Assembly: GCA_049647485.1 (NCBI GenBank)
Contig: JBARXT010000197.1
Coordinates: forward strand, 184-64,183
Direction: 5' to 3'
Origin: Xanthobacteraceae bacterium
GTDB taxonomy: Bacteria > Pseudomonadota > Alphaproteobacteria > Rhizobiales > Xanthobacteraceae
Length of the DNA stretch: 64,000 nt
In this document: positions 11,418 through 37,598 of the stretch, one piece after another
How positions within the stretch are numbered: position 1 is the first letter of the stretch
Layout: every line of letters begins with the position of its first letter
Translations under genes and position numbers: made by a program
Notes under the pieces: model-generated
Database searches by the model: none
What the model was told of the DNA's origin: nothing
The model's input: only the letters and a program-made list of their open reading frames with translations

Positions 11418-11444
11418 GTAATCGCTCCACACGCCCATCCCGCA

Positions 11445-14226: not shown

Positions 14227-14241
14227 AAATAATCGAGGCTC

Positions 14242-15057: not shown

Positions 15058-15235
15058 GCTGTTCGCTCCCGCGATCGCCGTTCCTGTCGCGCCGGGTCCT
15101 TGGTCCCCGGCGCGGCCCTCTCCGGGGCTTGCCGAGCATACAGCAACCGGACCGGAAGTCACCGCCGAACGGCCCCGGTCTCGACGTGTCGCGACGCCTG
15201 CGGCGAAGCATCGCGCCGGTGTGGCTGCGCTCTCC

Positions 15236-17058: not shown

Positions 17059-17092
17059 CCTCGGTCGTTCCTCTCGTTTTATTGTAATCTTG

Positions 17093-19212: not shown

Positions 19213-19240
19213 ACGCGACGCTCCTCGAAGCGTCTGTATC

Positions 19241-19332
19241 ATGGCCGTGCTTGTCCCGGCCATTCACGCCGCATGCGTTATTGTAGAAAGAAAGAAAGAC
19301 GTGGATGCTCGCGACAAGCGCGGGCATGACGG
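19241..19332. repeat. REP-like hairpin element, family A (copy 2)
   Basis: The element reads ATGGCCGTGCTTGTCCCGGCCATTCACG ... GACGTGGATGCTCGCGACAAGCGCGGGCATGACGG. It lies downstream of the TetR gene. Confidence 0.7.
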
Positions 19333-20269: not shown

Positions 20270-20288
20270 CGGGAGCCCTTTCACAAAT

Positions 20289-20304
20289 TCTAACATCTGT
20301 TAGA
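20289..20304. promoter_or_regulatory. Palindromic operator copy 1: TCTAACA-TC-TGTTAGA
   Basis: It lies in the divergent region between the hydratase (start 20269) and the SDR (start 20364). It is an A/T-rich perfect inverted repeat in GC-rich DNA. Confidence 0.7.
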
Positions 20305-20363
20305 TTATCGCAAAGTCGCCTTGGCCGCGACCCCAAACTGCAACGATCAACCTCAGGACCGCC

Positions 20364-21221
20364 ATGCAACTCACAGCCAAGATGCGCTTCGCTCCCGACC
20401 TGCTGAAGGATCAGGTCGCCCTCGTCACCGGCGGCGGCACCGGCATGGGCCGCGCCACCGCGCTGGAGATGGCGCAGTCCGGCGCCAGGATTGTGGTGCT
20501 GGGGCGACGGCCGGAACCGATCGAGGATTGCGCCAAAACCATCCGCGAGGCCGGCGGCGATGCCATTGCGATTTCCGGCGACATTCGGCAGCCGGAACAG
20601 ATCGAAGCGGCGATGGCGCAAATCCGCAGTGAATTCGGTAAGCTGAACATTCTGGTCAACAACGCCGGCGGACAATTCGTCACGCCGGCGCGCGAACTGA
20701 ACAACAAGGGGTTCGAGACCGTCATTCGTAACAATCTGGTCGGCTCGTGGCAGATGACGAAGGCGGTCGCCGATCATTTCATGTTCGAAAATGGCGGCTC
20801 CATCGTATTCGTTACCGCTTGTGTGCGGTCCGGCCTCAGCGGCTTCGTTCACACCGCGGCCGCGCGTGGCGGCGTGCTGGCGATGATGAAGACGCTGGCG
20901 TTCGAATGGGCCGAGTTCGGCATCCGCCTCAACTGCGTCGCCCCCGGCACGGTGAAGACCGAGGGCATGGGCCACTATCCGATTGCGCCCGAGCAGTGGC
21001 TAAAGCTCAACCGCAACGTCATGGGCCACATGGGCGACGTCGAGGACATCGCGGCCGCGATCATCTTCCTCGCCTCGCCGCTCGGCAAATTCGTCACCGG
21101 TGAGGAATGGTACATCGACGGCGGCGAGACGCTGCACCTCGCCCACGACGCGCGCCAGATGATCGACATGATGAAATTCACCACGCGCGAACGCGGCGAC
21201 GGCCAGCCGGGGAAGGGTTAA
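20364..21221 (+). CDS. SDR-family oxidoreductase (2,4-dienoyl-CoA / enoyl-CoA reductase-like)
   Basis: 285 aa. The Rossmann motif VTGGGTGMGRA and NILVNNAGG are present. An alternative start lies at 20382. Confidence 0.85.
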   Translation: MQLTAKMRFAPDLLKDQVALVTGGGTGMGRATALEMAQSGARIVVLGRRPEPIEDCAKTIREAGGDAIAISGDIRQPEQIEAAMAQIRSEFGKLNILVNNAGGQFVTPARELNNKGFETVIRNNLVGSWQMTKAVADHFMFENGGSIVFVTACVRSGLSGFVHTAAARGGVLAMMKTLAFEWAEFGIRLNCVAPGTVKTEGMGHYPIAPEQWLKLNRNVMGHMGDVEDIAAAIIFLASPLGKFVTGEEWYIDGGETLHLAHDARQMIDMMKFTTRERGDGQPGKG

Positions 21222-21224
21222 GTC

Positions 21225-23285
21225 CTAAAGCGCCTGCCCCACACGAACACCATCATCGATCGCACGCATGGCATCGAGTTCGGCGGCCTCTTTCGCGCCG
21301 CCAATGACATGCGCTTCGATGCCGCTGGCACGCAACTCTTCATAGAGACTGCGGTTGGAATCCTGCCCGGCGCAGACCACGATGGTATCCACCGCCAGCA
21401 CCTGCGGCTTGCCGTCAATCACGATGTGCAGTCCGGCATCGTCGATGCGGTCATAGCTGACGCCCGCCAGCAGTTTCACATCACGCTTGGCGAGGCTCGA
21501 GCGCAGAATCCAGCCGGTGGAGACGCCGAGCCCCGCACCGGGGCGCGACGCCTTGCGCTGCAGGATGGTGATTTCGCGCGACGCCTGGCGCGGCGCCAGC
21601 GGATCGCCGGACAAGCCGCCGGGGTGCGACAAGCTTGCGTCGATATTCCATTCACGCTGGAAATCTGCAAGTTCGAGCGCGCGATGTTTCGGTGCTTCAC
21701 CCGGCTGCGAATGGCAGAGATACTCGGCGACGTCGAAGCCGATGCCGCCCGCGCCGATGATGGCGACGCGACGTCCCGCCTTGCGTCGTCCGCTCAGGAG
21801 ATCGTGATAGACCACGACGCTGGGATGATCGATGCCGGGGATCGCCGGCACGCGTGGATGCACGCCGGAGGCCACGACCACCGCATCGAAACCCTCATTG
21901 GCAATATCCGCTTTCGACACGGGAGTATTCAAACGCAGGCTCACTTGCCCCGTCTCGATGCGGCCACTGTAATAGCGCAGCATCTCGTCGAACTCGGATT
22001 TCCCAGGTACTGCGCGCGCCAGATTGATCTGCCCGCCCACGCGATCGGATGCTTCGAACAGCGTCACCTTGTGCCCGCGACGACTGGCTTCTGCCGCCGC
22101 CGCCAAACCGCCGGCGCCGGCGCCAACCACTGCGACCTTGCGCGAGCGCTCCGCGGGTCCTTCCTCGAACAACGTCTCGCGGCAGGCACGCGGATTGACC
22201 AGACATGTCGCGCTCCGCTCGGAGAAGATCAGATCGAGACACGCCTGATTACAGGCGATGCAGGTGTTGATGGTTTCGGGCTTTCCCTCCCGTGTCTTCC
22301 TGGCGAAGAACGGATCTGCCAGCATCGGCCGCGCCATCGACACCAGATCGCTGTCGCCGGAGCCGATGACATCCTCCGCCAGTTCCGGTGTGTTGATGCG
22401 GTTCGACGCCACGACTGGAATTTTGACCGCACGCTTGATCCGCGCTGCGGCAAAGCGCCATGCCCCGCGCGGGATTGGATAAGCGATGGTCGGAACCCGC
22501 GCCTCGTGCCAGCCGATACCGGTGTTGAGAATATCCGCACCTGCTACCTCGACACGCTGCGCCAGGCGGTCGATCTCGTCGCCGGTCGCGCCGCCCTCGA
22601 CGAGGTCGAGTGCGGAAATGCGATAAATAATGATGAAATTGTCGCCCGTCGCGGCGCGAACGCGCTTCACCAGTTCGACCGGCAGGCGATGGCGGTTCTC
22701 TTCCGAGCCACCCCATTCGTCGGTGCGGTCGTTGGTGCGCAGCACGGTGAACTCATTGATCAGATAGCCTTCCGAGCCCATGATCTCGACACCGTCGAAA
22801 CCGGCTTCCTGCGCCAATGAGGCACAGCGGACGTAATCCGCGATCGTTTGTTCGATTTCCTCGCCGGTCATCGCACGCGGCGTGAAGCGGTTGATGCGCG
22901 AGCGGATGCTGGAAGGACCGAGACACTCCTCCTGCTTGGCATAGCGCCCGGAGTGCAGGATTTGCAGACAGATCCTGCTGTCGTACTTGTGTACCGCATC
23001 GGTGATCTGCCGCAGTTCCGGCACCTGCGCACGCTCCGTCAGCATCGGCCCGCCAGGTTCGATCAATCCGGCGCTGTTGGGCGCGTAGCCGCCGGTGATG
23101 ATGAGACCGACCTCACCCTTCGCCCGTTCGGAGAGGAAGGCCGCCATCTTGTATACGCCGTTCTCTTCCATATCGAGCCGGGTATGCATCGAACCCATGA
23201 TGATCCGGTTGCGCAATGTCGTTCCCCCGACCTTCAACGGCGCCAGAAGATGGGGATAGCGCGAAAGGCCCGGATCGGCTTGCAT
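21225..23285 (-). CDS. fadH: NADPH-dependent 2,4-dienoyl-CoA reductase (OYE-like TIM barrel plus FAD/NAD(P) domains)
   Basis: 686 aa. It appears collinear with E. coli FadH as I recall it. Shared segments include LLAPLKVGGTTLRNRIIMGSMHT, MGSEGYLINEF, NTGIGWHEARVPTIA, MARPMLADP and NTCIACNQACLD, plus VAVVGAGAGG. Confidence 0.9.
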   Translation of the reverse strand: MQADPGLSRYPHLLAPLKVGGTTLRNRIIMGSMHTRLDMEENGVYKMAAFLSERAKGEVGLIITGGYAPNSAGLIEPGGPMLTERAQVPELRQITDAVHKYDSRICLQILHSGRYAKQEECLGPSSIRSRINRFTPRAMTGEEIEQTIADYVRCASLAQEAGFDGVEIMGSEGYLINEFTVLRTNDRTDEWGGSEENRHRLPVELVKRVRAATGDNFIIIYRISALDLVEGGATGDEIDRLAQRVEVAGADILNTGIGWHEARVPTIAYPIPRGAWRFAAARIKRAVKIPVVASNRINTPELAEDVIGSGDSDLVSMARPMLADPFFARKTREGKPETINTCIACNQACLDLIFSERSATCLVNPRACRETLFEEGPAERSRKVAVVGAGAGGLAAAAEASRRGHKVTLFEASDRVGGQINLARAVPGKSEFDEMLRYYSGRIETGQVSLRLNTPVSKADIANEGFDAVVVASGVHPRVPAIPGIDHPSVVVYHDLLSGRRKAGRRVAIIGAGGIGFDVAEYLCHSQPGEAPKHRALELADFQREWNIDASLSHPGGLSGDPLAPRQASREITILQRKASRPGAGLGVSTGWILRSSLAKRDVKLLAGVSYDRIDDAGLHIVIDGKPQVLAVDTIVVCAGQDSNRSLYEELRASGIEAHVIGGAKEAAELDAMRAIDDGVRVGQAL

Positions 23286-23313
23286 GGCATGGCTCTCGTT
23301 GGCATTGCAGACA

Positions 23314-23331
23314 TTCTAACAATTGTTAGAA
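23314..23331. promoter_or_regulatory. Palindromic operator copy 2: TTCTAACA-AT-TGTTAGAA (18-bp perfect palindrome)
   Basis: It lies in the divergent region between fadH (start 23285) and the acyl-CoA dehydrogenase (start 23356). Confidence 0.7.
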
Positions 23332-23355
23332 TGGTTCGAATAATCAAGAGATTTC

Positions 23356-24546
23356 ATGAGGACGCCGGTGGACACCACGCTGAACGAACAGCAGGAAGCC
23401 TTCCGCGAGGCCGCAATGCGCTTTGCTACCGAGAAGCTGGCGCCGCAGTACCAGAAGCGCGCCACCGAACATCGGCTCGACCGCACGATGCTCCACGAGA
23501 TGGGCTCGCTCGGCCTGATCGGCGTCGATATTCCGGAAGCCTATGGCGGGCTTGGCGAGAGCAGCGTCACCGCAGGCGTCATCATCGAGCAGATCGCCTA
23601 TGCCGACTTCAACGCCAGCTACGTGCAACTGCTGGCCTCGCTGATGGGTGGCATGGTCGCGCAGCACGCGACGCCCGACGTGGCGAAGGAATGGCTGCCG
23701 AAGGTGACGCGGGGAGACGCCATCATCGGTCTCGGCCTCACTGAGCCACGCGGCGGGTCTGACGCCGCCAATCTCATTCTTCGTGCGGAGAAATCCGGCA
23801 ACGGATACCGCCTCAACGGCGAAAAGACCTCGATGAGCTGCGCCGACCAATGCGACGCCGCGGTGATCTTCGCCCGCACCGGCAAGGTAGAGGACGGCGC
23901 GCGCGGCGTCAGCGCATTCTTCGTCGATCTCAACCAGAAGGGCATCACCCGCACTCATTTCGACGACATCGGCACCAAGCCGGTCGGGCGCGGCTCGGTG
24001 TTCTTCGACGACGTGTTTGTGCCGGCCGAATGCCTGATGGCGGAGGAAAACAAAGGCTTTTCCAAAATCATGACCGGCTTCGATTACAGCCGCGCCTTGA
24101 TCGGCCTCGAATGCATCGGTCCGGCACAGGCGTCGGTGGACGAAGCCTGGCAGTACAGCCGCGAGCGCACCGCGTTCGAGCGGCCGATCGCCCAGTTCCA
24201 GGGAGTCAGTTTTCCATTGGCGGAAGCCGAGACACAACTCACCATGATGCGCCAGCTTTGCTTCCACACCCTGTCGCTGCGCGACCGCCGCCTGCCGCAC
24301 ACCGCCGAGGCCGCGATGTGCAAGTGGTACGTGCCGAAGACGACGTGCGAGATCATCCACCAGTGCCTGCTGACGCACGGGCATTATGGCTATACCACCG
24401 ATCTGCCGTTCCATCAGCGCTATCTCGACGTGATGGGGCTACAGATTGGTGACGGCACCGCGCAGATCCAGAAGCTGGTGATCGCGCGTGAAAAGGTCGG
24501 TCGCGTTGCGGTACAGTACGCCAAGCAGGATGCGGGGAAAGTATAA
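23356..24546 (+). CDS. Acyl-CoA dehydrogenase
   Basis: 396 aa. LTEPRGGSDA and LLTHGHYGYT...YLDVMGLQIGDGTAQI are present. Confidence 0.9.
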   Translation: MRTPVDTTLNEQQEAFREAAMRFATEKLAPQYQKRATEHRLDRTMLHEMGSLGLIGVDIPEAYGGLGESSVTAGVIIEQIAYADFNASYVQLLASLMGGMVAQHATPDVAKEWLPKVTRGDAIIGLGLTEPRGGSDAANLILRAEKSGNGYRLNGEKTSMSCADQCDAAVIFARTGKVEDGARGVSAFFVDLNQKGITRTHFDDIGTKPVGRGSVFFDDVFVPAECLMAEENKGFSKIMTGFDYSRALIGLECIGPAQASVDEAWQYSRERTAFERPIAQFQGVSFPLAEAETQLTMMRQLCFHTLSLRDRRLPHTAEAAMCKWYVPKTTCEIIHQCLLTHGHYGYTTDLPFHQRYLDVMGLQIGDGTAQIQKLVIAREKVGRVAVQYAKQDAGKV

Positions 24547-24588
24547 CCGCGTCTCATGAGATGGCACTCGCGTGACACCTCACTCCGC

Positions 24589-24674
24589 GGTCATGGCCGG
24601 GCTTGTCCCGGCCATCCACGTTCCATTGTAGCGCCGCCAAGACACGGATTGCCGGAATAAATCCGGCCATGACG
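24589..24674. repeat. REP-like hairpin element, family A (copy 3, double hairpin)
   Basis: The element reads GTCATGGCCGGGCTTGTCCCGGCCATCCACG ... CGGATTGCCGGAATAAATCCGGCCATGACG. It lies between convergent genes. Confidence 0.75.
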
Positions 24675-24721
24675 AATTCAAAAACAAGCGCCTTGCTTCA
24701 CGTCCTGCGCAAGGACGGCAT

Positions 24722-25411
24722 CTACCTGTCCGGTGCGAATTCGACCGGCGCGGCTTCCGCCGCCGAGGCGCCCTTCTCCCACAGCTTGGGATAGGTCACG
24801 CGAAAATCCTTCAGCAACTGATCGATCGGCGGATCGACGAACCAGCCGCGATCGTTGACATATTCCATGTGCCGCCGGTTCTGGGTATCGAACTCGTGGA
24901 ACAGCGCGTCGCCCTTGCCGTCGAACACCAGTTCGCGGACGCCGAAGCGCTGACACAGTTCGGAGTTGAAGGCCGGCGTCACCTTGAACATCTTGCCGTC
25001 GAGCCACAGCGCGACATAACCGTGATAGATGAACAGGTCCGTTCCCATCAGATCGGCCAGCTTCGCCGAGTTGAGATGATTGCGCACATCGGCGAATCCC
25101 GGTGCCGCCGGAATGCTGGCGGCGCGCAGTACTGCGGCAAGCAGGATCGCCTTCGGCACGCAGTAGTTCGAGGGTCGCTGCGCCACCGTGCTGGCGCGGT
25201 AATCGTGCGGCGTGGTGCCGACATGGAACGGATCGTATTTGATGCGGTCGCGCACGGCGTCGAACAGGCGGATCGCCTTGTCGGTCGGCGACGCGTTTTC
25301 GAAACCGCTCAACGCCGAGGCAGCGAAGTCGCGCACCGGCGCAGAACCACTATCGACGAAGGCCGTCGGCTTGAGGAAATCGGCAGAGGGAGAAGCAGTC
25401 ACGTCAACCAT
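24722..25411 (-). CDS. Transglutaminase-like (papain-fold Cys-His-Asp) superfamily protein
   Basis: From ORF 24722..25609, trimmed to MVDVTASPS at 25411. The candidate catalytic Cys is in SNYCVPKAILLAA and the candidate His is in LFIYHGYVALW. Confidence 0.65.
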   Translation of the reverse strand: MVDVTASPSADFLKPTAFVDSGSAPVRDFAASALSGFENASPTDKAIRLFDAVRDRIKYDPFHVGTTPHDYRASTVAQRPSNYCVPKAILLAAVLRAASIPAAPGFADVRNHLNSAKLADLMGTDLFIYHGYVALWLDGKMFKVTPAFNSELCQRFGVRELVFDGKGDALFHEFDTQNRRHMEYVNDRGWFVDPPIDQLLKDFRVTYPKLWEKGASAAEAAPVEFAPDR

Positions 25412-25435
25412 CCAAGCCAGGGTGCTTATCTGAAA

Positions 25436-25451
25436 TCTAACAAATGTTAGA
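25436..25451. promoter_or_regulatory. Palindromic operator copy 3: TCTAACA-AA-TGTTAGA
   Basis: It lies in the divergent region between the transglutaminase-like gene (start 25411) and the ACS-like synthetase (start 25527). Confidence 0.7.
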
Positions 25452-25526
25452 AACGAGCTATTGTCAATCGCGGTGACGCGGTATTGTACCCCCCACGCTT
25501 TCAATTCAAAGACCGTAGGACAGCCT

Positions 25527-27491
25527 ATGAGCGACGCCAACCAATACGTTTGGGAACCCTCCCCCGACCTCGTTGCGCAAAGCAATCTGACGGCATTCCT
25601 GCGCGCCACCGACCACGCGGACTACGACAGTCTTGCGGCCACCGCAGAGGCCGATCCGGCATGGCTGATGGAGCAGGTATTCAAATTCTGCGCCGTTCGA
25701 TTCTTTAAGCCTTACGACACGATGCTGGATATCTCGCGCGGCGAACCGTGGGCGCGCTGGTGCGCCGGCGGTACCACCAACATCGTACTGAACTGCATCG
25801 ACAAGCATCGCGACACGCCGGTATGGGACCAGACCTTTCTGGTGTGGGAGGGCGAAAACAAGACGGAGCAGCGCACACTCAGCTACCGCGAGCTTGATCG
25901 CGAGGTCAGCTGCCTGGCACAGGGCTTGCGCGATCTCGGCATCGAGCAGGGCGACGTGGTCGCCCTCTACATGCCGAACCTGCCGGAAACCTTCACCGCA
26001 TTCTTCGCGGTCATGAAGCTCGGCGCGATCCTGCTACCGCTGTTCTCGGGCTTCGGTCCCGCCCCGATCGTCTCCCGCCTCAACCACGGCGAGGCGAAAG
26101 CCGTAATCACTGCCAACGGCACTTGGCGGCGCGGCACGCCAGCCCCTTTGAAGTCCGTACTCGATGCCGCGCTGGAACAGGCGCCGAGCGTACGGCATGT
26201 GATCGTGGTCGATCGCGGCGGATTGTCCATCGAGACGCCGATGCGCGCCGGCCGCGACCATTGGTGGGATGACCTCACGGCGGGCAAAAACGGCGACATC
26301 GCAACCGTTGAGATGCCGGCCGATGCGCCCGCTATCCTGCTCTATACGTCGGGCACCACCGGCGAACCGAAGGGCTGCGTGTGGACCCAGATAGGCTTCA
26401 TTGGCTCGATGGTGACGCGCGACATCATCATCTGCTGCGACTTCAAGCCGACAGACCGCTTCTTCTTTATGAGCGACATGGGCTGGATGGTCGGCGCGAT
26501 GACCGCCTGCATCCCGAGCTTCGCCGGCGCCAGCCTGTTGGTGGCCGAAGGCACGCCGGATTATCCGGACACCGGACGGTTCTGGAGGCTGATCCAGGAT
26601 CATCGCGTCAGTTATCTCGGCGTTTCGCCCACCATCGTTCGCAGCCTTATGCGCTACGGTGAGGAAGTTGAGAACTACGATCTCTCCGGTTTGCGCATCA
26701 CCACCTCCGGCGGCGAGGCATGGACCGCCGCGCCGTGGCAATGGTTCTTCGAGCACGTCTGCAAGCGACGGTTGCCGATCATCAACATTTCCGGCGGTAC
26801 CGAAGTCGGCGGCTGCATATTTCTCGGCACGCCGAACCACCCGATGAATCCCGGCTCGTTTTCACGGCCGGCGCTCGGCGTTGGCGCCGATATCGTCGAT
26901 CTCTCGGGCAACAAGGTGCCGCCCGGCGAAGTGGGCGAACTGATCCTGCGCCATTCTTCCATCGGTCTGACGAAAAGCCTGTGGAAGGCGGACGCACGCT
27001 ACATCGACAATTACTGGAACACGCTGCCCGGCATCTGGGTGCACGGCGACTTCGCCATGCAGGGCACCGATGGGCTCTACTACATTCTCGGCCGTTCCGA
27101 TGACACCATCAAGATTTCCGGCAAGCGCACCGGCCCCGCCGAACTCGAGGGCCTATTGGTCGCCACCGGCAAGGTGGCGGAGGCCGCAGTGTTCGGCATC
27201 CCGCATCCGGTGAAGGGATCGGCCATCGTCTGCGCCTGCGTGCTGATGCCGAGTGTTACGGAACAAGGCATCGCCGAAGAATTATCAAGTGCACTGGTGA
27301 AAGGCATGGGCGCGTCCTATCGCCCCGAGCGCATCGTCTTCGTCGATGACTTGCCGCGCACCCGCAACCTGAAGATCATGCGCCGTGTGCTGCGCGCGGT
27401 GTTCGAGAACAAGGACCCGGGTGACCTGTCGTCGCTCGCCAATCCTGAGACGGTGGACGCGCTGCGCAGGCAGGTGGCGGCGTCACCCTGA
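25527..27491 (+). CDS. AMP-forming acyl-CoA synthetase, long acetyl-/acetoacetyl-CoA synthetase-like form
   Basis: From ORF 25461..27491, with the start at MSDANQYVW (25527). It has an ACS-type N-terminal extension, YTSGTTGEPKG, the WMVG block, ISGGTE, and GRSDDTIKISGKR. Confidence 0.85.
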   Translation: MSDANQYVWEPSPDLVAQSNLTAFLRATDHADYDSLAATAEADPAWLMEQVFKFCAVRFFKPYDTMLDISRGEPWARWCAGGTTNIVLNCIDKHRDTPVWDQTFLVWEGENKTEQRTLSYRELDREVSCLAQGLRDLGIEQGDVVALYMPNLPETFTAFFAVMKLGAILLPLFSGFGPAPIVSRLNHGEAKAVITANGTWRRGTPAPLKSVLDAALEQAPSVRHVIVVDRGGLSIETPMRAGRDHWWDDLTAGKNGDIATVEMPADAPAILLYTSGTTGEPKGCVWTQIGFIGSMVTRDIIICCDFKPTDRFFFMSDMGWMVGAMTACIPSFAGASLLVAEGTPDYPDTGRFWRLIQDHRVSYLGVSPTIVRSLMRYGEEVENYDLSGLRITTSGGEAWTAAPWQWFFEHVCKRRLPIINISGGTEVGGCIFLGTPNHPMNPGSFSRPALGVGADIVDLSGNKVPPGEVGELILRHSSIGLTKSLWKADARYIDNYWNTLPGIWVHGDFAMQGTDGLYYILGRSDDTIKISGKRTGPAELEGLLVATGKVAEAAVFGIPHPVKGSAIVCACVLMPSVTEQGIAEELSSALVKGMGASYRPERIVFVDDLPRTRNLKIMRRVLRAVFENKDPGDLSSLANPETVDALRRQVAASP

Positions 27492-27492
27492 A

Positions 27493-27592
27493 GTGCGAGC
27501 AAAGCGAGCCTCAAGGGGTGACGCGCAAAATATATCGGCCGCCATCCTTCGATGGTTCCATGCTAAGCGCGGCGCACCTCAGGATGACGGCC
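27493..27592. repeat. REP-like element, family C (copy 2)
   Basis: The element reads GCGAGCAAAGCGAGCCTCAAGGGGTGACG ... CCTTCGATGG ... GCGCACCTCAGGATGACGG. It lies between convergent genes. Confidence 0.65.
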
Positions 27593-27607
27593 TTCTTCTG
27601 CGCTTTC

Positions 27608-28420
27608 CTAAATCGGGCACTCCGGCGGGAACGAGGGTTTGCGCTTCTCGAGATGCGAGGCCAGCCCCTCACGCGCCTCAAGCCCGGTAAAGCCGAGGAT
27701 TTCCAGCGCCGTCGACGTATCGAAGAGCGGCCCGTTCACGCGCAGCCAGTTATTGAGCGAATACTTGGTCCAGCGGATCGCGCTCTGCGCGCCGGTGGCG
27801 AGATCTTCCGCGGTTTCCAGCGCGATCTTCTGCAACTCGGCATCCTCGACGCACAACGACACCAGCCCGATGCGCTCGGCTTCCTCACCCGACAGCGGCT
27901 TGCAGGTCAGCAGATAATATTTCGCCTTGGCCAGCCCGCACAGCAGTGGCCAGATGATGCAGGCGACGTCGCCTGCCGCCACCCCGAGCCGCGTATGGCC
28001 GTCGACGATCTTGGCGGATTTGCCGCAGATCGACACGTCCGCGAGAATGCCGACGACCAGCCCGGCGCCCACCGCGACGCCGTTGATGGCGGAAATGATC
28101 GGCTTGTTGCAGTTGATGACGTTGTAAACAAGATCCTTGGCTTCCTTCCAGGTCGACATGCGCGCGACCGGATTGTCGAGAATGCTCTTGATCAGTTCGA
28201 AATCCCCGCCGGCGGAAAACGCCTTGCCCGCACCGGTCACGATCACCGCATTGATATCCGGATCGTCGTTGATGTCGCGCCAGATGTGCGTAAGTTGGGT
28301 ATGCGTCTCCGCATCCACCGAATTGTATGTTTCCGGCCGATCGAAGGTGATCCGAAGAATCCGCTTCGAAGGATAGTCAAGCTTCAACTTGGTATAGGCA
28401 GCATAGCGGTCCGACATCAT
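27608..28420 (-). CDS. Enoyl-CoA hydratase/isomerase
   Basis: 270 aa. [26 protein letters not shown] and [12 protein letters not shown] are present. Confidence 0.9.
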
Positions 28421-28532
28421 CGCTTCCTCGTTTTCAACGGCCTGTTTGGCGTGCCTGCGATACTCATCCTATACTGATCCACGCCTCGGAACTACGAGTC
28501 CCTTTCCCCGCGCAACCAGCTATGGAAATTTT

Positions 28533-28548
28533 TCGAACAGATGTTAGA
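28533..28548. promoter_or_regulatory. Palindromic operator copy 4: TCGAACA-GA-TGTTAGA (one mismatch)
   Basis: It lies in the divergent region between the hydratase (start 28420) and the synthetase/thiolase-like/DUF35 operon (start 28666). Confidence 0.6.
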
Positions 28549-28665
28549 ATTTTAGGTGGGATTGCCCCGCACCGCAAGCGCCGACTTGCCGAGATGCAAT
28601 AACGAGATACGATGCAACGACGGATGTGGCGCTGTTCAAGCGACACTCCGATCGCGGAGGACCAC

Positions 28666-30222
28666 ATGCAAAGCGAGCGACAAGATTCGCCGACGACGAC
28701 CGCCGGCACCAGTTCGACGGTCGGTAGCCTGTTCCGCGCTCGCGCCGCGATCCAGCCGGCCGCGCCTGCCATCGAATATGGCGACAGAGCCGTCAGCTAC
28801 GGCGAACTGAACGACCGGGTGAACCGCGCAAGCGCGTTGCTGGCCGCGCGTGGACTCAAGCGCGGCGACCGTGTCGCATTATTGTCGCGCAACCGCCCGG
28901 AATATCTCGAGATCGAACTCGCGGCCGGACAACTTGGCGTCATCACCGCCTGCCTGAACTGGCGGCTGTCGAAGCGCGAACTGGTCTACTGCATCGAACT
29001 TGTTTCACCCAAACTGCTGATTGCGGAAGCGGAGTTGGTCGCGCCGCTGGACGGCGCGCTCTCGGTCCGCGACGTCGTGACGCTCGGCACGGATTACGAA
29101 AGGGCACTGCAAGCGCAGACCGGCGCACCATCGCCGATCGCGGCAGAGCCGGAAGACGGTCTCGTCATTCTCTACACCAGCGGTACCACTGGCCTGCCAA
29201 AAGGTGCAGTGATCTCGCATCGCGCGATGATGGCGCGCGCACTGGTGTTCTCATCCGAACTCAACATCGCGCACGATGAATCCTTCGTCGCCTGGGCGCC
29301 GTTGTTCCACATGGCTTCGACCGACCACGCGATTGCCACACTGTTGCGCGGCGGCACTGTGATCGTGGTCGACGGCTTCCAGGTCGCGCCGCTACTGTCC
29401 GCCGCCGCGCGCTACCGCATCGGCTGGTTCGTGCTGATCCCCGGCATGGTGGAGGCTCTTGTCGAGGGATTCCGCGCCGATCCCGTCACCGTGAAGGGTA
29501 TCCGCACCTGCGGCGCGATGGCCGACCTGGTGCCGCCGCAGGCCATCGCCGACATCACGCAGCTGTTGCAGGCGCCCTACATCAATAGCTTCGGGTCTAC
29601 CGAGACCGGCCTGCCGCCGGCCAGCACCAACCTCATCGCGATCGGGGACATACCCGCAAGGCTGTCGAAACAGCAAAGCAGTTTCTGCGAGATCAAGCTG
29701 GTCGATCCCGACGACAATGAGGTGGCGATAGGCCAGCCCGGCGAACTCGCCATGCGCGGGCCCACGCTGTTCTCCGGCTACTGGCAGGCGGACGAGACCA
29801 ACGCGCGCGATTTTCGCGGCGGCTGGTTTCACATGGGCGACGTATTTCGCCGCAACTCCGACGGCACGCTCGATTTCGTGGATCGCGCCAAATACATGAT
29901 CAAATCCGGCGGCGAGAACGTCTATCCAGCCGAGATCGAACGCGTGCTGATGACCGATTCCCGCATCACCGAGGCCGCCGTGGTGCGCACCAAGGACGCC
30001 AAATGGGGCGAGGTGCCGGTCGCGTTCATCGCCCGCCGCGACGACAGCCTCACCGAGGCCGAACTGACCGCGATGTGCCGGCGCGATCTCGCCGGCTACA
30101 AATGCCCGCGACAGTTCCATTTCATCGACTTCGCGGACTTCCCACGCTCGACCAGCGGCAAGGTGCAGCGGCACGAGCTTGAGGCGCGGCTGACGCAAAC
30201 CGCTTCCGCTGCCGCAACATAG
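28666..30222 (+). CDS. AMP-dependent acyl-CoA synthetase
   Basis: From ORF 28612..30222, with the start at MQSERQD (28666). YTSGTTGLPKGA, FGSTE, HMGDV, KSGGENVYP and PRSTSGK are present. Confidence 0.85.
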   Translation: MQSERQDSPTTTAGTSSTVGSLFRARAAIQPAAPAIEYGDRAVSYGELNDRVNRASALLAARGLKRGDRVALLSRNRPEYLEIELAAGQLGVITACLNWRLSKRELVYCIELVSPKLLIAEAELVAPLDGALSVRDVVTLGTDYERALQAQTGAPSPIAAEPEDGLVILYTSGTTGLPKGAVISHRAMMARALVFSSELNIAHDESFVAWAPLFHMASTDHAIATLLRGGTVIVVDGFQVAPLLSAAARYRIGWFVLIPGMVEALVEGFRADPVTVKGIRTCGAMADLVPPQAIADITQLLQAPYINSFGSTETGLPPASTNLIAIGDIPARLSKQQSSFCEIKLVDPDDNEVAIGQPGELAMRGPTLFSGYWQADETNARDFRGGWFHMGDVFRRNSDGTLDFVDRAKYMIKSGGENVYPAEIERVLMTDSRITEAAVVRTKDAKWGEVPVAFIARRDDSLTEAELTAMCRRDLAGYKCPRQFHFIDFADFPRSTSGKVQRHELEARLTQTASAAAT

Positions 30223-30230
30223 GAGATTTC

Positions 30231-31436
30231 ATGACCAAGGCTGCGGCCCTCGCCGGCCACAAGAATTCGTTGCGCGGACAGGTCGCCATTGTCGGCATCG
30301 GACTGTCGCCTGTCGGCAAGGTGCCGGGCCGCAGCCCGCTGTGGCTAGCCGCTGCCGCCGCCAAGCAGGCCCTGGCCGATGCGGGCATGCAGAAAAACGA
30401 AATCGACGGCGTGCTGGCGAGCCCGGCGATGGCCGCGCAATTTCATCGCTTCAGCGTCGCCTTCAGCGAATATTTCGGCGTGCAACCGACATTCTCCAAC
30501 ACGTTGCAGGTCTCGGGGGCGACCGCCGCCACCATGTTCAACATCGCGGCGGCGGCCATCCACGGCGGCCTCGCGGAAACCGTGCTGGTGGTCGGCGGCG
30601 ACAGTCTGCTCTCAGGTCTTACGCCGGAACTGGCGCTACGCTCGCTCACCGAAAGCCGCGACCAGCAATACGAAATGCCATTCGGCATTCCGGTCGCCAA
30701 CACCTTCGCGATGACCGCACATCGGCACATGAAGGAATTCGGCACCACCCCGGAGCAACTGGCACAGGTGGCGGTGACGCAGCGCCAGCACGCCGCGCGC
30801 ACCCCCGGCGCGCAGCAGACCGCGCCGATCACCGTCGAGGACGTACTCAATTCGAAGATGGTGACGACGCCCTATCATAAGCTCGACTGTTCGCTGATTT
30901 CCGACGGCGGCGCGGCGTTCGTGCTGACGTCAGCCGAACGCGCGAAAGCGCTCGGCATCGAAAATCCGATCTACATTCTCGGCGGCGGCGAATGCTACAC
31001 CCACGAGCACATCTTCCTGATGCCTTCGCTCACCACCACCGGCGCGGTGCAATCGAGCCGGAAGGCCTATGCGATGGCAGGCTATGGCCCGAAGGACATG
31101 CACACCGCCGGCGTCTATGACTGCTTTACCGGCACCGTCATCATGATGCTGGAAGATCTCGGCTTCTGTCCCAAGGGAGAAGGCGGCCGTTTTGTCTCTG
31201 ATGGTCAGATGACATACGGTGGACAGATTCCCTCCAACACCCATGGCGGGCTGTTGTCGTTCGCACATTCCGGCATTCCCGGCTCGCTGTTCCATTTCCA
31301 TGAAGTCGTCGCGCAACTGCGCGGCGAATGCGGCGATCGGCAGGTCGCGGGCGCCGAACTCGGGCTGATCCACAGCCTCGGCGCCGGATTCGCCACCAAC
31401 GCCACCACCATTCTCGGCACGGAGAACACGTTGTGA
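30231..31436 (+). CDS. Thiolase-fold protein of the SCP-x / lipid-transfer type, apparently lacking the nucleophilic Cys
   Basis: 401 aa. Thiolase-like blocks are present: KLDCSLISDGGAAFVL, YDCFTG, LGFCPKGEGG and NTHGGLLS. There is no Cys in the first 218 residues or so; the usual N-x-C-x-S/T-G region reads LQVSGATAA. Confidence 0.8.
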   Translation: MTKAAALAGHKNSLRGQVAIVGIGLSPVGKVPGRSPLWLAAAAAKQALADAGMQKNEIDGVLASPAMAAQFHRFSVAFSEYFGVQPTFSNTLQVSGATAATMFNIAAAAIHGGLAETVLVVGGDSLLSGLTPELALRSLTESRDQQYEMPFGIPVANTFAMTAHRHMKEFGTTPEQLAQVAVTQRQHAARTPGAQQTAPITVEDVLNSKMVTTPYHKLDCSLISDGGAAFVLTSAERAKALGIENPIYILGGGECYTHEHIFLMPSLTTTGAVQSSRKAYAMAGYGPKDMHTAGVYDCFTGTVIMMLEDLGFCPKGEGGRFVSDGQMTYGGQIPSNTHGGLLSFAHSGIPGSLFHFHEVVAQLRGECGDRQVAGAELGLIHSLGAGFATNATTILGTENTL

Positions 31437-31852
31437 TCTCGCTAGAAGACGCCGCCCGCAAGCCGCTCCCCTCACCCGATGCCGATACCGCCACGCTGTG
31501 GTGCGGCCTGCGCGACGGCCAATTGCTGCTCCAGCACTGCGACGATTGCGGCAACGTGCAGTTCTATCAGCAAGGTTTTTGCCGCCATTGCAGCGGCGAG
31601 AACCTGACGCATCGACCGGCCAGCGGGCGCGGCAAGGTGCATTCCTTCAGCGTCGTCCACCGCGCGCCCGGCCCTGCCTTCAAGAATGACGTGCCCTATG
31701 CCGTGCTGCTGGTGGAACTGGCCGAAGGCCCGCGGATGATTTCAACCTATACCGGCGGCGAGCCGGACGAGGTGAGGTTCGACATGGACGTCGTGCTGGT
31801 CTGCGAACCGGTGTCCGGCGACATCGCCCTGCCCCGTTTCAGGCGGGCCTGA
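31433..31852 (+). CDS. DUF35 protein (rubredoxin-like Zn ribbon plus OB fold), partner of the thiolase-like protein
   Basis: This is the tail of ORF 31328..31852. The GTG at 31433 overlaps the upstream TGA (GTGA). The Cys4 ribbon reads HCDDCGNVQFYQQGFCRHCSG and is followed by an OB-like segment, KVHSFSVVH. Confidence 0.8.
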   Translation: MISLEDAARKPLPSPDADTATLWCGLRDGQLLLQHCDDCGNVQFYQQGFCRHCSGENLTHRPASGRGKVHSFSVVHRAPGPAFKNDVPYAVLLVELAEGPRMISTYTGGEPDEVRFDMDVVLVCEPVSGDIALPRFRRA

Positions 31853-31902
31853 CCTCATTAGCCACTCGACGCGAGTGAGCCAAAAAGACGCTTGGGCATA
31901 AT

Positions 31903-31918
31903 TCTAACAGTTGTTAGA
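31903..31918. promoter_or_regulatory. Palindromic operator copy 5: TCTAACA-GT-TGTTAGA
   Basis: It lies upstream of the dehydrogenase/carboxylase operon (ATG 31991) and is the first of a tandem pair spaced 18 bp centre to centre. Confidence 0.7.
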
Positions 31919-31920
31919 TT

Positions 31921-31936
31921 TTGAACACCTGTTAGA
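31921..31936. promoter_or_regulatory. Palindromic operator copy 6: TTGAACA-CC-TGTTAGA (degenerate left arm)
   Basis: It is the second of the tandem pair and lies 55 bp upstream of the ATG at 31991. Confidence 0.55.
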
Positions 31937-31990
31937 TTGCAACGGCCGGGGCTTGTCCCTAAGCTCGCGCCGCCTTCACCGGAACCTGCC

Positions 31991-33154
31991 ATGGATTTCG
32001 ACCTCACCACCGAACAGCAGCAAATCCTCGATTACGGCAACAGCGTTGCCAGGCAATACGACCGCCGCTACTGGCTCGATTGCGCGGAGAAACGCGAATT
32101 TCCCGTCGCGCTCTATCGGAAGGTGGCGTTGGACGGCTTCGTCGGCATGATGGTGCCGGAACAATATGGCGGCGCCGGTCAGGGCATGACCGAGATGCAC
32201 CTGTTCCTCGAGGGGCTCTCCAACAACGGCATTCCGCTGTTAAATCTCGTGGTCGGCGCCACCATGAGCCTCGGCCTGATCGCCAAATACGGCACCGAGG
32301 CGCAGAAACAGCGTTTCCTGCCCGACGCCTGCGCCGGCAAGACCCGTTTTTGCTTCGCCATCACCGAGCCCGATGCCGGCACCAACTCGATGCGCATCAC
32401 CACGCTGGCGAAGCGCAACGGCAATCGTTTCTCGCTGAACGGCCAAAAGACCTTCATCACCGACGCCGACGGCTCCGACTACGTACTGGTGGTGGCACGC
32501 ACCATTCCGCATACCGAAGTGAAGCGGAAGACCGACGGTTTCACGCTGTTCATTGTCGACCTCAAGGCCAAGGGCGTCAGCAAGCAATACATTCCGGTCA
32601 GCATTCCCGCGCCGGAAACCCAGTGGCAACTGTTCTTCGACGATGTCGATCTCGGGCCGGAAGACGCCATCGGCGAGATCGATCGCGGCTTCGAAATCCT
32701 GTTCAAGAGCCTCAACCCGGAGCGCATTCTGGTCGGATCGATCTGCTGCGGGCTCGGCCGCTACGCGCTCAATCGCGCAGTCGCGTATGCCAGCGAACGC
32801 AAGGTGTTCAACAATACGCCGATCGGCGCCTATCAGGGCCTGCAACACCCACTCGCCAGCGCTTATACCGACGTCGAAATGGCTTCGCTGATGACGCTGA
32901 AGGCCGCGTGGGTGTTCGATCAAGGCCGCGAGGCTGGCGAATTCTCCAACATGGCGAAACTCGCCGCCGCCGATGCCGGCACCAAGGCGGTGGACACCGC
33001 ACTGCAATGCTTCGGCGGCAACGGCTTCACCAAGGAATACGGCATCTTCGACATCTATCCGCTGGTACGGCTGCTGAAGACCGCGCCCCTCAACCGCGAA
33101 ATGCTTCTCAACTACATCGGTGAGCGCGTCATGGGCTTGCCACGCAGCTATTAG
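31991..33154 (+). CDS. Acyl-CoA dehydrogenase
   Basis: From ORF 31937..33154, with the start at MDFDLTTEQ (31991). ITEPDAGTNS, KTFITDA and QCFGGNGFT are present. Confidence 0.9.
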   Translation: MDFDLTTEQQQILDYGNSVARQYDRRYWLDCAEKREFPVALYRKVALDGFVGMMVPEQYGGAGQGMTEMHLFLEGLSNNGIPLLNLVVGATMSLGLIAKYGTEAQKQRFLPDACAGKTRFCFAITEPDAGTNSMRITTLAKRNGNRFSLNGQKTFITDADGSDYVLVVARTIPHTEVKRKTDGFTLFIVDLKAKGVSKQYIPVSIPAPETQWQLFFDDVDLGPEDAIGEIDRGFEILFKSLNPERILVGSICCGLGRYALNRAVAYASERKVFNNTPIGAYQGLQHPLASAYTDVEMASLMTLKAAWVFDQGREAGEFSNMAKLAAADAGTKAVDTALQCFGGNGFTKEYGIFDIYPLVRLLKTAPLNREMLLNYIGERVMGLPRSY

Positions 33155-33166
33155 GACCGTGCCGCA

Positions 33167-34774
33167 ATGGCTGTGATGAAATCCGACATCTCGACGACAA
33201 GCGACGAATATCGCCGCAACCACGAGGTCTATCGCGAGCGCATCGGCGATCTGCATCGGCGGCGTGCTGCCGCTATGCTGGGCGGGCCGGAGCGGGCCCG
33301 AAAGCTGCACAAGGAACGCAAGCAACTGTTGCCGCGCGAGCGCATCGCCGCGCTGATGGACCCCGGCTCGCCATTCCTCGAGTTCAGTCAGTTGGCCGGC
33401 GAAGGCATGTATGAGGGCGTGCCGCCCGGCGGCAGCATCATCACCGGCGTCGGCATCGTCTCCGGCCGCCCGTGCATGATCATTGCCAACGACGCCACCG
33501 TGAAAGGCGGCACCTATTACGGCATCACCTGCAAGAAGCACGTCCGCGCCCAGCACTTCGCCTGGAAGCATCGCCTGCCCTGCATCACCCTGGTGCAATC
33601 CGGCGGCGCCAACCTGCCCGAGCAGCCGAGCATCTTTCCGGATGAGGGTCAGTTCGGCTCGATTTTCTACAACCAGATCCGCATGTCCGGCGAAGGCATC
33701 CCGCAGATCGCCATTGTGCACGGCCCCTCCACCGCCGGCGGCGCGTATATGCCGGCGCTGTGCGACGAAACCGTGATCGTGCGCAATCAGGGCGCGATGT
33801 TTCTCGGCGGACCGCAGCTCGTCTATGCCGCGACCAAGGAAGAAGTCGGCGTCGAGGCACTGGGCGGCGGCGAGATGCACAGCCGCATCAGCGGCGTCAC
33901 CGATCATCTGGCGGAGAACGACAGCCACGCCATCGCCATCACCCGCGATATCGTGGCGAACCTCGGCGACATCCCGCAGCAACGCTGGCAGGTGGCCAAA
34001 CCACGACCGCCGCGCTTCGACCCGAACGAAATCTACGGTCTCGTCAGTGCCGACCCGCGCATTCCCACCAACAGCCGCGATATCATCGCGCGGCTGGTGG
34101 ATGGCAGCGAGTTTCACGAATTCAAGCCGCTCTACGGTGACACGCTGATCACCGGCTTCGCCCGCATCATGGGTTTCGAGATCGGCATTCTCTGCAACAA
34201 TGGCGTGCTGTTCTCCGAAAGCGCGCTGAAGGCGACGCATTTCATCGACCTGTGCTGCAAGCGCGGCATTCCACTGCTGTTCATGGCGGACGTCACCGGC
34301 TTCATGGTCGGCCGCGAAGCCGAAGAAGGCGGCATCTCCAAGCATGGCGCCAAGATGATCACCGCCATGGCCAGCGCCGACGTGCCGAAATACACGCTGA
34401 TCATCGGCAATTCTTACGGCGCCGGCTACATGTCGATGTGCGGCCGCCCGATGAAGCCCAACGCCATGATGATGTGGCCGAACGGCCGCTCCGCGATCAT
34501 GGGGCCGGATCAAGCAGCCAACACCCTCGCCATGGTCAAGGACGAAGCCCACAAGCGCGAAGGTACGAGTTGGACCGAAGTGGAACGCGAAGCCTATCGC
34601 GCGCCGGTGCGCCAGCAGTTCGAGGATTTCGCCAGTGCTTATAACTTCGCGCGCAATATCTGGTGCGACATGGTGATCGACCCGATCGAAACCCGCAACG
34701 TGATGGCGCTCCTGCTCGATCTGGCCGGCCGAACGCCGCCAAAAGACACGCGCGTCGGCGTGCTTCGGATGTGA
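33167..34774 (+). CDS. Acyl-CoA carboxylase carboxyltransferase (beta) subunit, canonical methylcrotonyl-/geranyl-CoA carboxylase type
   Basis: 535 aa. LLPRERIAALMDPGSPFLEFSQLAG, ANDATVKGGTYYGITCKKHVRAQ and PSTAGGAYMPA closely match MCC-beta as I recall it. Confidence 0.9.
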   Translation: MAVMKSDISTTSDEYRRNHEVYRERIGDLHRRRAAAMLGGPERARKLHKERKQLLPRERIAALMDPGSPFLEFSQLAGEGMYEGVPPGGSIITGVGIVSGRPCMIIANDATVKGGTYYGITCKKHVRAQHFAWKHRLPCITLVQSGGANLPEQPSIFPDEGQFGSIFYNQIRMSGEGIPQIAIVHGPSTAGGAYMPALCDETVIVRNQGAMFLGGPQLVYAATKEEVGVEALGGGEMHSRISGVTDHLAENDSHAIAITRDIVANLGDIPQQRWQVAKPRPPRFDPNEIYGLVSADPRIPTNSRDIIARLVDGSEFHEFKPLYGDTLITGFARIMGFEIGILCNNGVLFSESALKATHFIDLCCKRGIPLLFMADVTGFMVGREAEEGGISKHGAKMITAMASADVPKYTLIIGNSYGAGYMSMCGRPMKPNAMMMWPNGRSAIMGPDQAANTLAMVKDEAHKREGTSWTEVEREAYRAPVRQQFEDFASAYNFARNIWCDMVIDPIETRNVMALLLDLAGRTPPKDTRVGVLRM

Positions 34775-34790
34775 TGACGGAGGACGCGCC

Positions 34791-36788: not shown

Positions 36789-36827
36789 TTGCGGCGTCGA
36801 CGACGCGAAGCAAACAGGGAGCACGTC

Positions 36828-37589
36828 ATGAGACTGGGCAGCGTCAATTACGAGATCAAAGGCAAGATCGCGATCTTGACTCTGGACGAGCCGACCAAAC
36901 TCAACGCCCTGACCACTGGCATCCGCGAGGGTATACTCGCTGGCTTGGCCCGCGCCGACGCTGATGAGAGCATTCGCGCCGTCATCATCACCGGCGGCGG
37001 CGACAAGGCGTTCTGTGCCGGCGCCGACATTAGCGGCTTTGAACTGGAAGCCGAGAAGGGCCGCAAATTTCTTGCCGCCGCGCTCGATGTGCTGGCGGCG
37101 CCGGAACGCTGCGGCAAGCCGGTGATCTCTGCCGTCAACGGCCTCGCCTACGGCGGCGGGTTCGAACTCGCGATGGCATCGGATTTCATCATCGCGTCCG
37201 ACCGCGCCAAGTTTGCCGTCCCGGAAATCCAGCTCGGCCTGCTGCCCGGTTTCGCCATCGTCCGCCTCCACGACATCGTCGGCCGAGCGAAGGCGAAAGA
37301 ACTCAGCATTCTAGGTGATCCGATCAGTGCGTCGGAAGCCGAACGGATCGGGCTCGTGCTGCGTGTCGTGCCGCACGATACCCTGATGACCGAGGCGCTG
37401 GCCTTTGCCGACCGCATCGCTGCCAAGCCGCGGCTTGCGGTGGCGATGGCGAAATCGTTCTACAACCGCGGCCTTGGCGGCGACGAGATGCGCCATGCCG
37501 TCGACGGCTTCCCTCTGCTGATGATGCATGAGGACGCGCGCGAAGGTATCGCCGCGTTTCGCGAGAAGCGCAAGCCAGCGTTCAAGTAG
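36828..37589 (+). CDS. Enoyl-CoA hydratase/isomerase
   Basis: From ORF 36789..37589, with the start at MRLGSVNYEI (36828). LTLDEPTKLNAL, FCAGADI, GLAYGGG and EGIAAFREKRKP are present. Confidence 0.85.
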   Translation: MRLGSVNYEIKGKIAILTLDEPTKLNALTTGIREGILAGLARADADESIRAVIITGGGDKAFCAGADISGFELEAEKGRKFLAAALDVLAAPERCGKPVISAVNGLAYGGGFELAMASDFIIASDRAKFAVPEIQLGLLPGFAIVRLHDIVGRAKAKELSILGDPISASEAERIGLVLRVVPHDTLMTEALAFADRIAAKPRLAVAMAKSFYNRGLGGDEMRHAVDGFPLLMMHEDAREGIAAFREKRKPAFK

Positions 37590-37598
37590 ACGGCAGCC

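Follow-up and report, generated by a model that had tools for sequence, protein, structure and literature searches.

This analysis concerns a 64,000-nucleotide stretch of DNA, referred to throughout as the window, from a Xanthobacteraceae bacterium (GenBank assembly GCA_049647485.1, contig JBARXT010000197.1, positions 184 to 64,183). Between 19.5 and 38.5 kb the window carries nine transcription units encoding enzymes of acyl-CoA metabolism, among which are interspersed six copies of a palindromic sequence, TCTAACANNTGTTAGA, and the cluster is adjoined by a gene for a TetR-family regulator (Table 1). Judged from the sequence, the six palindromes are very probably operators of this TetR protein, which would act as the repressor of a local regulon comprising all nine units. 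A literature search, which had RegPrecise outside its scope, found no published account of the motif or of the regulator, and the system is apparently a new, widely conserved and undescribed member of the very familiar TetR local-regulon type.

An exact search of the window returned four copies of TCTAACANNTGTTAGA (S1, S2, S3 and S5, starting at 20289, 23315, 25436 and 31903), for which 100 dinucleotide-preserving shuffles gave an expectation of 0.00. Allowing up to three mismatches added only S4 at 28533 (one mismatch) and S6 at 31921 (two mismatches), and the resulting six matches compare with a shuffle mean of 0.39 and a shuffle maximum of 3. The same six positions had been picked out in a first-pass annotation made from the sequence alone, and its judgement that such a recurrence is unlikely to arise by chance is borne out. 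A symmetrised weight matrix derived from the six sites was run over the whole 64 kb. The six sites score between 26.6 and 37.5 bits, and the next match, which overlaps S2, reaches 12.1 bits and is followed by one of 6.0. Because the scores drop in this way past the six sites, no copy is taken to be present in the left-hand cluster, in the transporter region or ahead of the TetR gene, in agreement with what had been noticed by eye for the first two. When the start codons of the cluster genes are chosen by ortholog length, all six sites lie between genes. S1 to S4 are located in divergent promoter regions, and S5 and S6 form a tandem pair, spaced 18 bp centre to centre, in front of the dehydrogenase/carboxylase operon. 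The proposal that at least nine genes or operons belong to one apparent regulon is matched by the nine transcription units mapped here.

The distribution of the motif in related genomes was determined from a genome scan with the TetR alignment, in which one genome per species was kept and about 20 kb around each TetR ortholog was examined. This gave 80 loci, from Bradyrhizobium, Afipia, Nitrobacter, Rhodopseudomonas, Tardiphaga and uncultured Xanthobacteraceae, and nearly every one of them contains three to five motif matches, almost all downstream of the TetR gene. Placement was counted in those loci that had two or more ortholog matches, 74 in all, onto each of which the window proteins were mapped. 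Within the cluster span all 212 motif matches (212/212) fall between ortholog matches, a compartment that makes up 15.9% of the bases (binomial P ~3e-170, uncorrected for phylogeny); 152 of them lie between divergent genes and 58 before a co-directional gene. The intergenic placement first noted for the six window copies and conservation at orthologous promoters in relatives, which had been set beforehand as a check on the motif, are both seen in these 74 loci.

Counterparts of the individual sites (labelled as in Table 1) are also evident. The S1 counterpart lies in the ECH1/SDR or ECH1/ACS1 gap of 47 related loci, the S2 counterpart in the FadH/ACAD1 gap of 24, and the S3 counterpart in the gap between the transglutaminase-like gene and ACS1 in 40; the ECH2/ACS2 gap holds an S4 counterpart in 40 loci, and the variant TCGAACAGATGTTAGA recurs there in many relatives. 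Tandem pairs with a spacing of 17–19 bp occupy the S5/S6 position in eight loci (L021, L025, L033, L034, L037, L039, L044 and L083). Moreover, the motif follows the predicted operon boundaries as gene order shifts. The order in Bradyrhizobium is TetR, ECH1 (minus strand), site, ACS1 (plus strand), ECH2 (minus strand), site, ACS2-SCPx-DUF35, site, and carboxyltransferase-biotin carboxylase. At loci that lack FadH, where SDR and ACAD1 are co-directional, there is mostly no site between these two genes (the exceptions being L020 and L041).

The reverse search, from motif to genes, used the exact 20-mer ATTCTAACANNTGTTAGAAT against metagenome contigs and returned 87 fragments. A homolog of a cluster gene is found no more than 2.5 kb away in 48/52 fragments with a GC content of at least 0.5, so that the motif, in GC-rich DNA, is essentially specific to this cluster. 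A TetR homolog is present on 25/52 of these fragments, many of which are short. The corresponding figures for AT-rich fragments are 4/35 with a cluster homolog within 2.5 kb and 2/35 with a TetR-type helix-turn-helix (HTH), and these matches were set aside as mostly chance-like, although L143, one of the two with such an HTH, looks real. On this metagenome contig (JAEEGH010001077.1, GC 0.41) two tandem copies, TCTAACATCTGTTAGA and TCTAACGTATGTTAGG, at positions 2316–2372 fill a canonical TTGACA/TATAAT promoter directly upstream of the gene for a 200-aa TetR protein. The HTH domain, 38% identical over 56 aa, is all that this protein has in common with the window TetR, and the operator may therefore go with this HTH type beyond the Alphaproteobacteria as well, together with a different ligand domain. 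Three other metagenome loci (L126, L129 and L132) represent a third cluster variant with carboxyltransferase, biotin carboxylase, SCPx and SDR genes, bounded by exact copies of the 20-mer; the TetR of this variant is 36–41% identical and has the same recognition helix.

The TetR gene adjoins the motif-bearing right-hand cluster in 74 loci, whatever its other neighbour, which may be the AraC/geranyl-CoA-carboxylase (GCC)-like cluster, ribonucleotide reductase (L001) or, on another contig, an IclR-type regulator gene. The first-pass annotation had considered the cognate regulator not obvious and had named the TetR gene as the nearest candidate; the candidate stands, and the doubt is lifted by this linkage. 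The doubt had arisen from a different palindrome, GAAACAGGTTTC, at ~18381 upstream of the TetR gene, which is dismissed here as a chance occurrence, as it is not kept in a relative (L012) whose TetR is 96% identical. In several relatives the TetR gene is preceded by a conserved TTGACG-N17-CAATAAT-like promoter.

The window TetR matches PF00440 TetR_N (E = 4.7e-16), carries the PF17932 TetR_C_24 ligand domain and provides the only TetR-type HTH in the window. A basic, disordered N-terminal tail of ~55 aa is followed by the HTH at residues ~60–112, with the recognition helix AGSIYYYFDSK. The AlphaFold2 (AF2) model has a pLDDT of 80, with values below 50 for residues 1–42 and nine helices at 85–97 over residues 60–220, and the best 50 Foldseek matches listed for it are all TetR-family proteins. 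Wherever the motif is found the recognition helix is kept as AGS(I/V)YY(Y/H)FxSK, at overall identities from 35% to 96%. Single-domain relatives, 64–96% identical, come from Xanthobacteraceae metagenome-assembled genomes and have the motif at orthologous promoters, and many further relatives, of ~430 aa, consist of two fused TetR units. Two-domain homologs (40–55% identity) in Hoeflea (L007), Roseobacter litoralis (L092), an Aquibium-type contig (L093) and Sneathiella (L094) have the motif in their own TetR/SDR divergent promoter and are accordingly predicted to be autoregulated through it. Further divergent promoters in their clusters carry the motif too, and one of these leads to an AtuA/biotin-carboxylase/carboxyltransferase operon. 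The tail of the window protein (residues 1–55, window positions 18460–18625) is rich in Arg, Pro, Ala and Ser; in the ~430-aa relatives an entire second TetR unit stands in its place, and the single unit of the window aligns to their C-terminal repeat. The tail may be what is left of a lost unit, or an arm gained for contacting DNA.

Table 1. Genes and predicted operators of the TetR-linked cluster, in window coordinates.
Feature	Coordinates	Strand	Unit or location	Basis or distances
TetR-family regulator, 250 aa	18460..19212	+		Pfam TetR_N + TetR_C_24
ECH1, enoyl-CoA hydratase/isomerase, 261 aa	19484..20269	-	unit 1	Pfam ECH_1; start by ortholog length
Operator S1	20287..20306; core 20289-20304, TCTAACATCTGTTAGA		divergent ECH1/SDR promoter	19 nt to ECH1 start (20269), 59 nt to SDR start (20364)
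SDR oxidoreductase	20364..21221	+	unit 2	Pfam adh_short
FadH-like Old-Yellow-Enzyme/pyridine-nucleotide oxidoreductase (2,4-dienoyl-CoA reductase type)	21225..23285	-	unit 3	Pfam Oxidored_FMN, Pyr_redox_2
Operator S2	23312..23333; core 23315-23330		centred in 70-bp FadH/ACAD1 divergent region	29 nt to FadH start, 25 nt to ACAD1 start
ACAD1, acyl-CoA dehydrogenase close to cyclohexanecarboxyl-CoA dehydrogenase	23356..24546	+	unit 4	Pfam ACAD domains
Transglutaminase-like protein, about 226-229 aa	24722..25411	-	unit 5	Pfam Transglut_core; start by ortholog length
Operator S3	25434..25453; core 25436-25451		divergent transglutaminase-like/ACS1 promoter	24 nt to transglutaminase-like start, 75 nt to ACS1 start
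ACS1, acetyl/acetoacetyl-CoA-synthetase-like ligase, 654 aa	25527..27491	+	unit 6	Pfam ACAS_N, AMP-binding; start by ortholog length
ECH2, enoyl-CoA hydratase of PRK07327 family	27608..28420	-	unit 7	NCBIfam NF005595, 415 bits vs cut-off 292
Operator S4	28531..28550; core 28533-28548, TCGAACAGATGTTAGA, 1 mismatch		divergent ECH2/ACS2 promoter	112 nt to ECH2 start, 63 nt to ACS2 start
ACS2 / SCPx-type thiolase / DUF35 (ChsH2-like OB fold) operon	28612..31852	+	unit 8	Pfam; gene order kept in relatives
Tandem operators S5/S6	31901..31938; S5 31903-31918, S6 31921-31936 (2 mismatches)		between units 8 and 9	50 nt past DUF35 stop, 54 nt before ACAD2 start (31991)
ACAD2 / carboxyltransferase / biotin carboxylase-BCCP / ECH3 / alpha-beta hydrolase operon	31991..38453	+	unit 9	Pfam

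The logo of 229 distinct sites spans 20 bp and reads W-T-T-C-T-A-A-C-A-n-n-T-G-T-T-A-G-A-A-W, so that the 16-bp unit described initially is present as the core of a longer conserved element. A4, A5 and C6 are invariant, C2 and T3 nearly so, and the two central bases are free. The statement that four copies are perfect palindromes holds for their 7-bp arms; the centres of S1, S3 and S5 are non-palindromic, and S2, the exception, is a perfect palindrome of 22 bp and not of 18 bp as first reported. The weak extra match at 23322–23341 (ATTGTTAGAATGGTTCGAAT, 12 bits) overlaps the right arm of S2, reusing TGTTAGA as its left arm together with a degenerate right arm, GTTCGA, and may be an additional, weak site or have arisen by chance.

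The right arm with its flank, TGTTAGAWT (TGTTAGAAT), agrees with the extended -10 consensus TGnTATAAT at 8/9 positions. Moreover, T occupies flank position 18 at 87% of the divergent sites and at 98% of the co-directional ones, whereas the mirror position (A at -1) is kept in only 35% and 60%, respectively. Such an asymmetry is not expected from symmetric dimer contact, which favours a -10 element of the rightward operons. Indeed, a consensus promoter scan placed -10 or -35 hexamers on S1, S2 and S4, and the right arm of S4 contains a predicted TG-extended -10 (TAGAAT). The distance from site to start codon has a median of 31 nt for leftward genes and is about 70 nt for rightward genes.

The most likely mechanism, as read from these sequence features, would proceed as follows. 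A TetR dimer would bind each 20-bp palindrome, WTTCTAACAnnTGTTAGAAW, and two dimers may bind the S5/S6 pair before the carboxylase operon, as is suggested by the recurrence of the tandem arrangement in eight other loci. Repression would occur by occlusion, with the dimer covering the rightward -10 and sitting on, or just downstream of, the leftward start. Because the right arm would coincide with the rightward -10 and the leftward genes start ~20–45 nt away, a single bound repressor could block both divergent promoters. A CoA thioester from early in the pathway, or the free acid, would then bind the C-terminal domain and free the repressor from the DNA. The TetR protein itself is probably made constitutively in this lineage, since its promoter is operator-free.

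What the sequence and the comparison of genomes show directly is where the sites lie, that they are conserved and that they go with the TetR gene, and other explanations of this pattern were weighed as well. It is unlikely, though conceivable, that the palindrome is the operator of some other, unlinked regulator, be it a global fatty-acid regulator of the PsrA, FadR or FadP type or the AraC or MarR protein of the window, and that the TetR protein binds something else. Such an arrangement would account for the missing motif before the TetR gene in this lineage and for a AACANNTGTT core equal to that of the Shewanella lipid-catabolism motif, and a palindrome of this size fits MarR, GntR and IclR proteins too. 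However, the TetR gene is the only regulator gene seen to stay with the motif-bearing cluster over 74 loci; the AraC gene is missing from many of these, and in the window 29 kb separate the MarR gene from the last site. In addition, the distant two-domain TetR homologs have the motif in their own promoters, TetR homologs accompany the 20-mer on 25/52 GC-rich metagenome fragments, and the window holds a single TetR-type HTH.

Slightly less probable again is a role of the 20-mer mainly as a promoter element, that is, as back-to-back extended -10 boxes or as a site for an alternative sigma factor or an activator, and not as a repressor site. The likeness to the extended -10 consensus, the asymmetric T at position 18 and the promoter-scan matches would all be in keeping with this, but both arms are equally conserved even without leftward transcription (58 co-directional cases), the central two bases are free, as in dimer operators, and tandem copies 18 bp apart would be senseless as -10 boxes. 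The motif is also tied to one TetR subfamily over Xanthobacteraceae/Nitrobacteraceae, Hoeflea, Roseobacter and Sneathiella. Promoter and operator roles are, in any case, compatible, and their overlap is already part of the proposed TetR repression. Finally, the copies are the top family of direct repeats, and the most prominent short repeat, within 18–39 kb, as might be expected of remnants of a mobile repeat resembling repetitive extragenic palindromic (REP) or miniature inverted-repeat transposable elements (MITEs), or of an RNA structure, without regulatory role. This origin is extremely improbable: the likeness among copies ends at about 20 bp, 7-bp A/T-rich arms with a 2-nt loop should not form a stable hairpin, no Rfam match was obtained, and the sites persist at orthologous promoters from genus to genus even as their flanks diverge.

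Some points nevertheless count against the local TetR regulon as proposed. Shared ancestry inflates the statistics over the loci, and the view is limited to ~20 kb per ortholog, so that there may be sites elsewhere or an unlinked second regulator of the same specificity. The motif was not found ahead of the TetR gene, either in the window or in the Xanthobacteraceae loci, which is atypical because many TetR repressors are autoregulated, although this is common and not obligatory in the family. S3 has TAGAAA in place of TAGAWT, and the -10 overlap is drawn from consensus likeness. Lastly, DarR, a fold neighbour of the window TetR, binds cyclic nucleotides, and an acyl-CoA effector is therefore a family-level guess only.

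The nine units together encode two CoA ligases and two acyl-CoA dehydrogenases, along with three hydratases, an SDR and an enzyme resembling dienoyl-CoA reductase; an SCPx thiolase and its DUF35 partner, and a carboxylase of the methylcrotonyl-CoA carboxylase (MCC) type, complete the enzymes of the pathway. The set is best explained by a predicted pathway of the beta-oxidation type that would act on a branched or alicyclic carboxylic acid. The beta subunit of the motif-controlled carboxylase is MCC-like (583–633 bits against MCC/AccD1 chains vs 429 against geranyl-CoA carboxylase), and the substrate is probably a methyl-branched or alicyclic acid. ACAD1 scores 545 bits on TIGR03207, the cyclohexanecarboxyl-CoA dehydrogenase equivalog, for which the cut-off is 575; this near-cut-off score is a hint that part of the pathway may act on an alicyclic compound resembling naphthenic acids. 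ECH2 is the sole cluster protein above an NCBIfam family cut-off. It also appears unusually constrained, being 92–100% identical among relatives whose other cluster proteins are 65–90% identical. The transglutaminase-core (cysteine-protease-fold) protein is kept in 40+ loci and is also present in Hoeflea, and its gene is always divergent from that of the acetoacetyl-CoA-synthetase-like ligase.

The nearest solved folds to the AF2 model of the TetR protein, and its nearest sequences, include PfmR, DarR (the fold ranked second), FadR of B. subtilis and of B. halodurans, KstR2 and AibR. PfmR and KstR2 sense acyl-CoA, FadR of B. subtilis has been crystallised with stearoyl-CoA, and AibR with isovaleryl-CoA. 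By analogy with these proteins, an acyl-CoA or acid effector is plausible.

The first-pass annotation had been unable to match the motif to an operator such as that of PsrA, FadR or LiuR. The motif is not that of AtuR or KstR, but its architecture and AACANNTGTT core are common to the Shewanella lipid-catabolism motif, TTtAAACaNNtGTTTaAA, which was reportedly attributed to PsrA by Kazakov et al. in 2009. The two motifs are of equal length, have the same 2-nt centre and agree at 12/16 specified positions. The half-site is TCTAACA here and TTAAACA in the Shewanella motif, however, and, set against the PsrA operator type (T)AAAC-N2-4-GTTT(A), the outer positions differ consistently over the 229 distinct sites. 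PsrA of Pseudomonas and Shewanella is likewise a TetR repressor of many beta-oxidation operons, and in Shewanellaceae it controls fatty-acid degradation (PMC5343134). The window TetR is not a PsrA ortholog, since it scores 42 bits on NCBIfam NF053516 (cut-off 300) over residues 59–168, the HTH only. Moreover, the PsrA regulon covers central fatty-acid degradation genome-wide, whereas the present one is a local cluster, without autoregulation in this lineage.

The proposed layout of the regulon is that of KstR and KstR2, which govern mycobacterial cholesterol and lipid catabolism. KstR is a single TetR repressor whose short palindrome recurs in numerous intergenic regions, often divergent ones, of one large catabolic cluster and overlaps the -10 region (PMC1995591). 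KstR2 has the TetR_C_24 domain type of the window TetR and is a neighbour in sequence and fold, albeit a remote one in sequence (E = 2e-9, about 22% identity). The KstR operator, TnnAACnnGTTnnA (TAGAAC-N2-GTTCTA), was rejected as a counterpart, as it has 2 nt between AAC and GTT whereas all sites here have 4 nt (AAC-ANNT-GTT). AtuR, the TetR repressor of acyclic terpene utilisation in Pseudomonas, resembles the window system in adjoining a cluster of biotin carboxylase, acyl-CoA dehydrogenase, hydratase and CoA ligase genes for branched acids, and an AtuA gene is part of the related regulon in Roseobacter. Its operator is situated in a divergent promoter over the -10 and -35, and fatty and naphthenic acids relieve its binding (bioRxiv 10.1101/2025.09.24.678253). 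The AtuR operator, TACAAACCAAGCGCTTGCTTGGTA, bears no resemblance to the window motif, and AtuR-type control of a GCC (Atu) cluster was rejected because the motif-controlled carboxylase is MCC-like and the GCC-like one belongs to the motif-free left-hand cluster.

FadR (Bacillus), PfmR (Thermus) and AibR (Myxococcus) reach TM-scores, normalised to the target, of 0.80–0.86 against the AF2 model with an identity of only 18–24%. The operators of these three proteins are not known to resemble the window motif, and the window TetR falls below the Bacillus-type FadR equivalog (NF053878, 58.6 bits vs a cut-off of 200). Mycobacterial Mce3R (406-aa chain, 9b7y) has a fused two-unit build like that of the ~430-aa relatives from Rhodobacterales and Hyphomicrobiales; only its HTH aligns with the window TetR (E = 6e-12), which is a single-unit form with a disordered basic tail. 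LiuR, of the MerR family, was rejected as belonging to another regulator family: the adjacent regulator is a TetR protein, and no MerR-family gene was found among the cluster open reading frames scanned (18–41 kb).

A broader possibility, judged less likely than not, is that an undescribed ancient TetR subfamily defines a conserved alphaproteobacterial regulon for a branched/alicyclic acyl-CoA pathway. It would exist as a fused two-unit form (Rhodobacterales, Hoeflea and Sneathiella) and as a single unit with a basic tail (Xanthobacteraceae/Nitrobacteraceae), both reading the same 20-bp palindrome, with the operator arm doubling as an extended -10 and one repressor silencing two divergent promoters. 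At the level of the cluster itself, the analysis provides a testable regulon for a widespread catabolic locus of soil and marine Alphaproteobacteria (Bradyrhizobium, Afipia, Nitrobacter, Rhodopseudomonas and Roseobacter), in which the motif marks the genes that belong together, including the odd but conserved transglutaminase-like protein. The repressor–operator pair could also serve as a biosensor part for its inducer, as AtuR does for naphthenic acids. The general view of how such systems work is unchanged.

The motif-free left-hand cluster (5279–18241) encodes a CoA ligase, a hydratase, biotin carboxylase, carboxyltransferase, a second CoA ligase, BKACE, AraC, GST and two acyl-CoA dehydrogenases. 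Its carboxyltransferase is geranyl-CoA-carboxylase-like (616 bits to 5ikl vs 478 to MCC), and this is the Atu-like cluster of the window. The AraC-containing cluster is found in close relatives only, and never with the motif; it is presumably regulated by the AraC gene at about 14.2–15.1 kb.

A separate 30-nt repeat, TCATGGCCG(T/G)GCTTGTCCCGGCCAT(T/C)CACG, occurs at 19239–19268 and 24591–24620 in copies that are 93% identical and contain a GC-rich hairpin. Convergent genes flank each copy, TetR and ECH1 the first and ACAD1 and the transglutaminase-like gene the second, and the repeat is probably a bidirectional terminator or a REP-like element.

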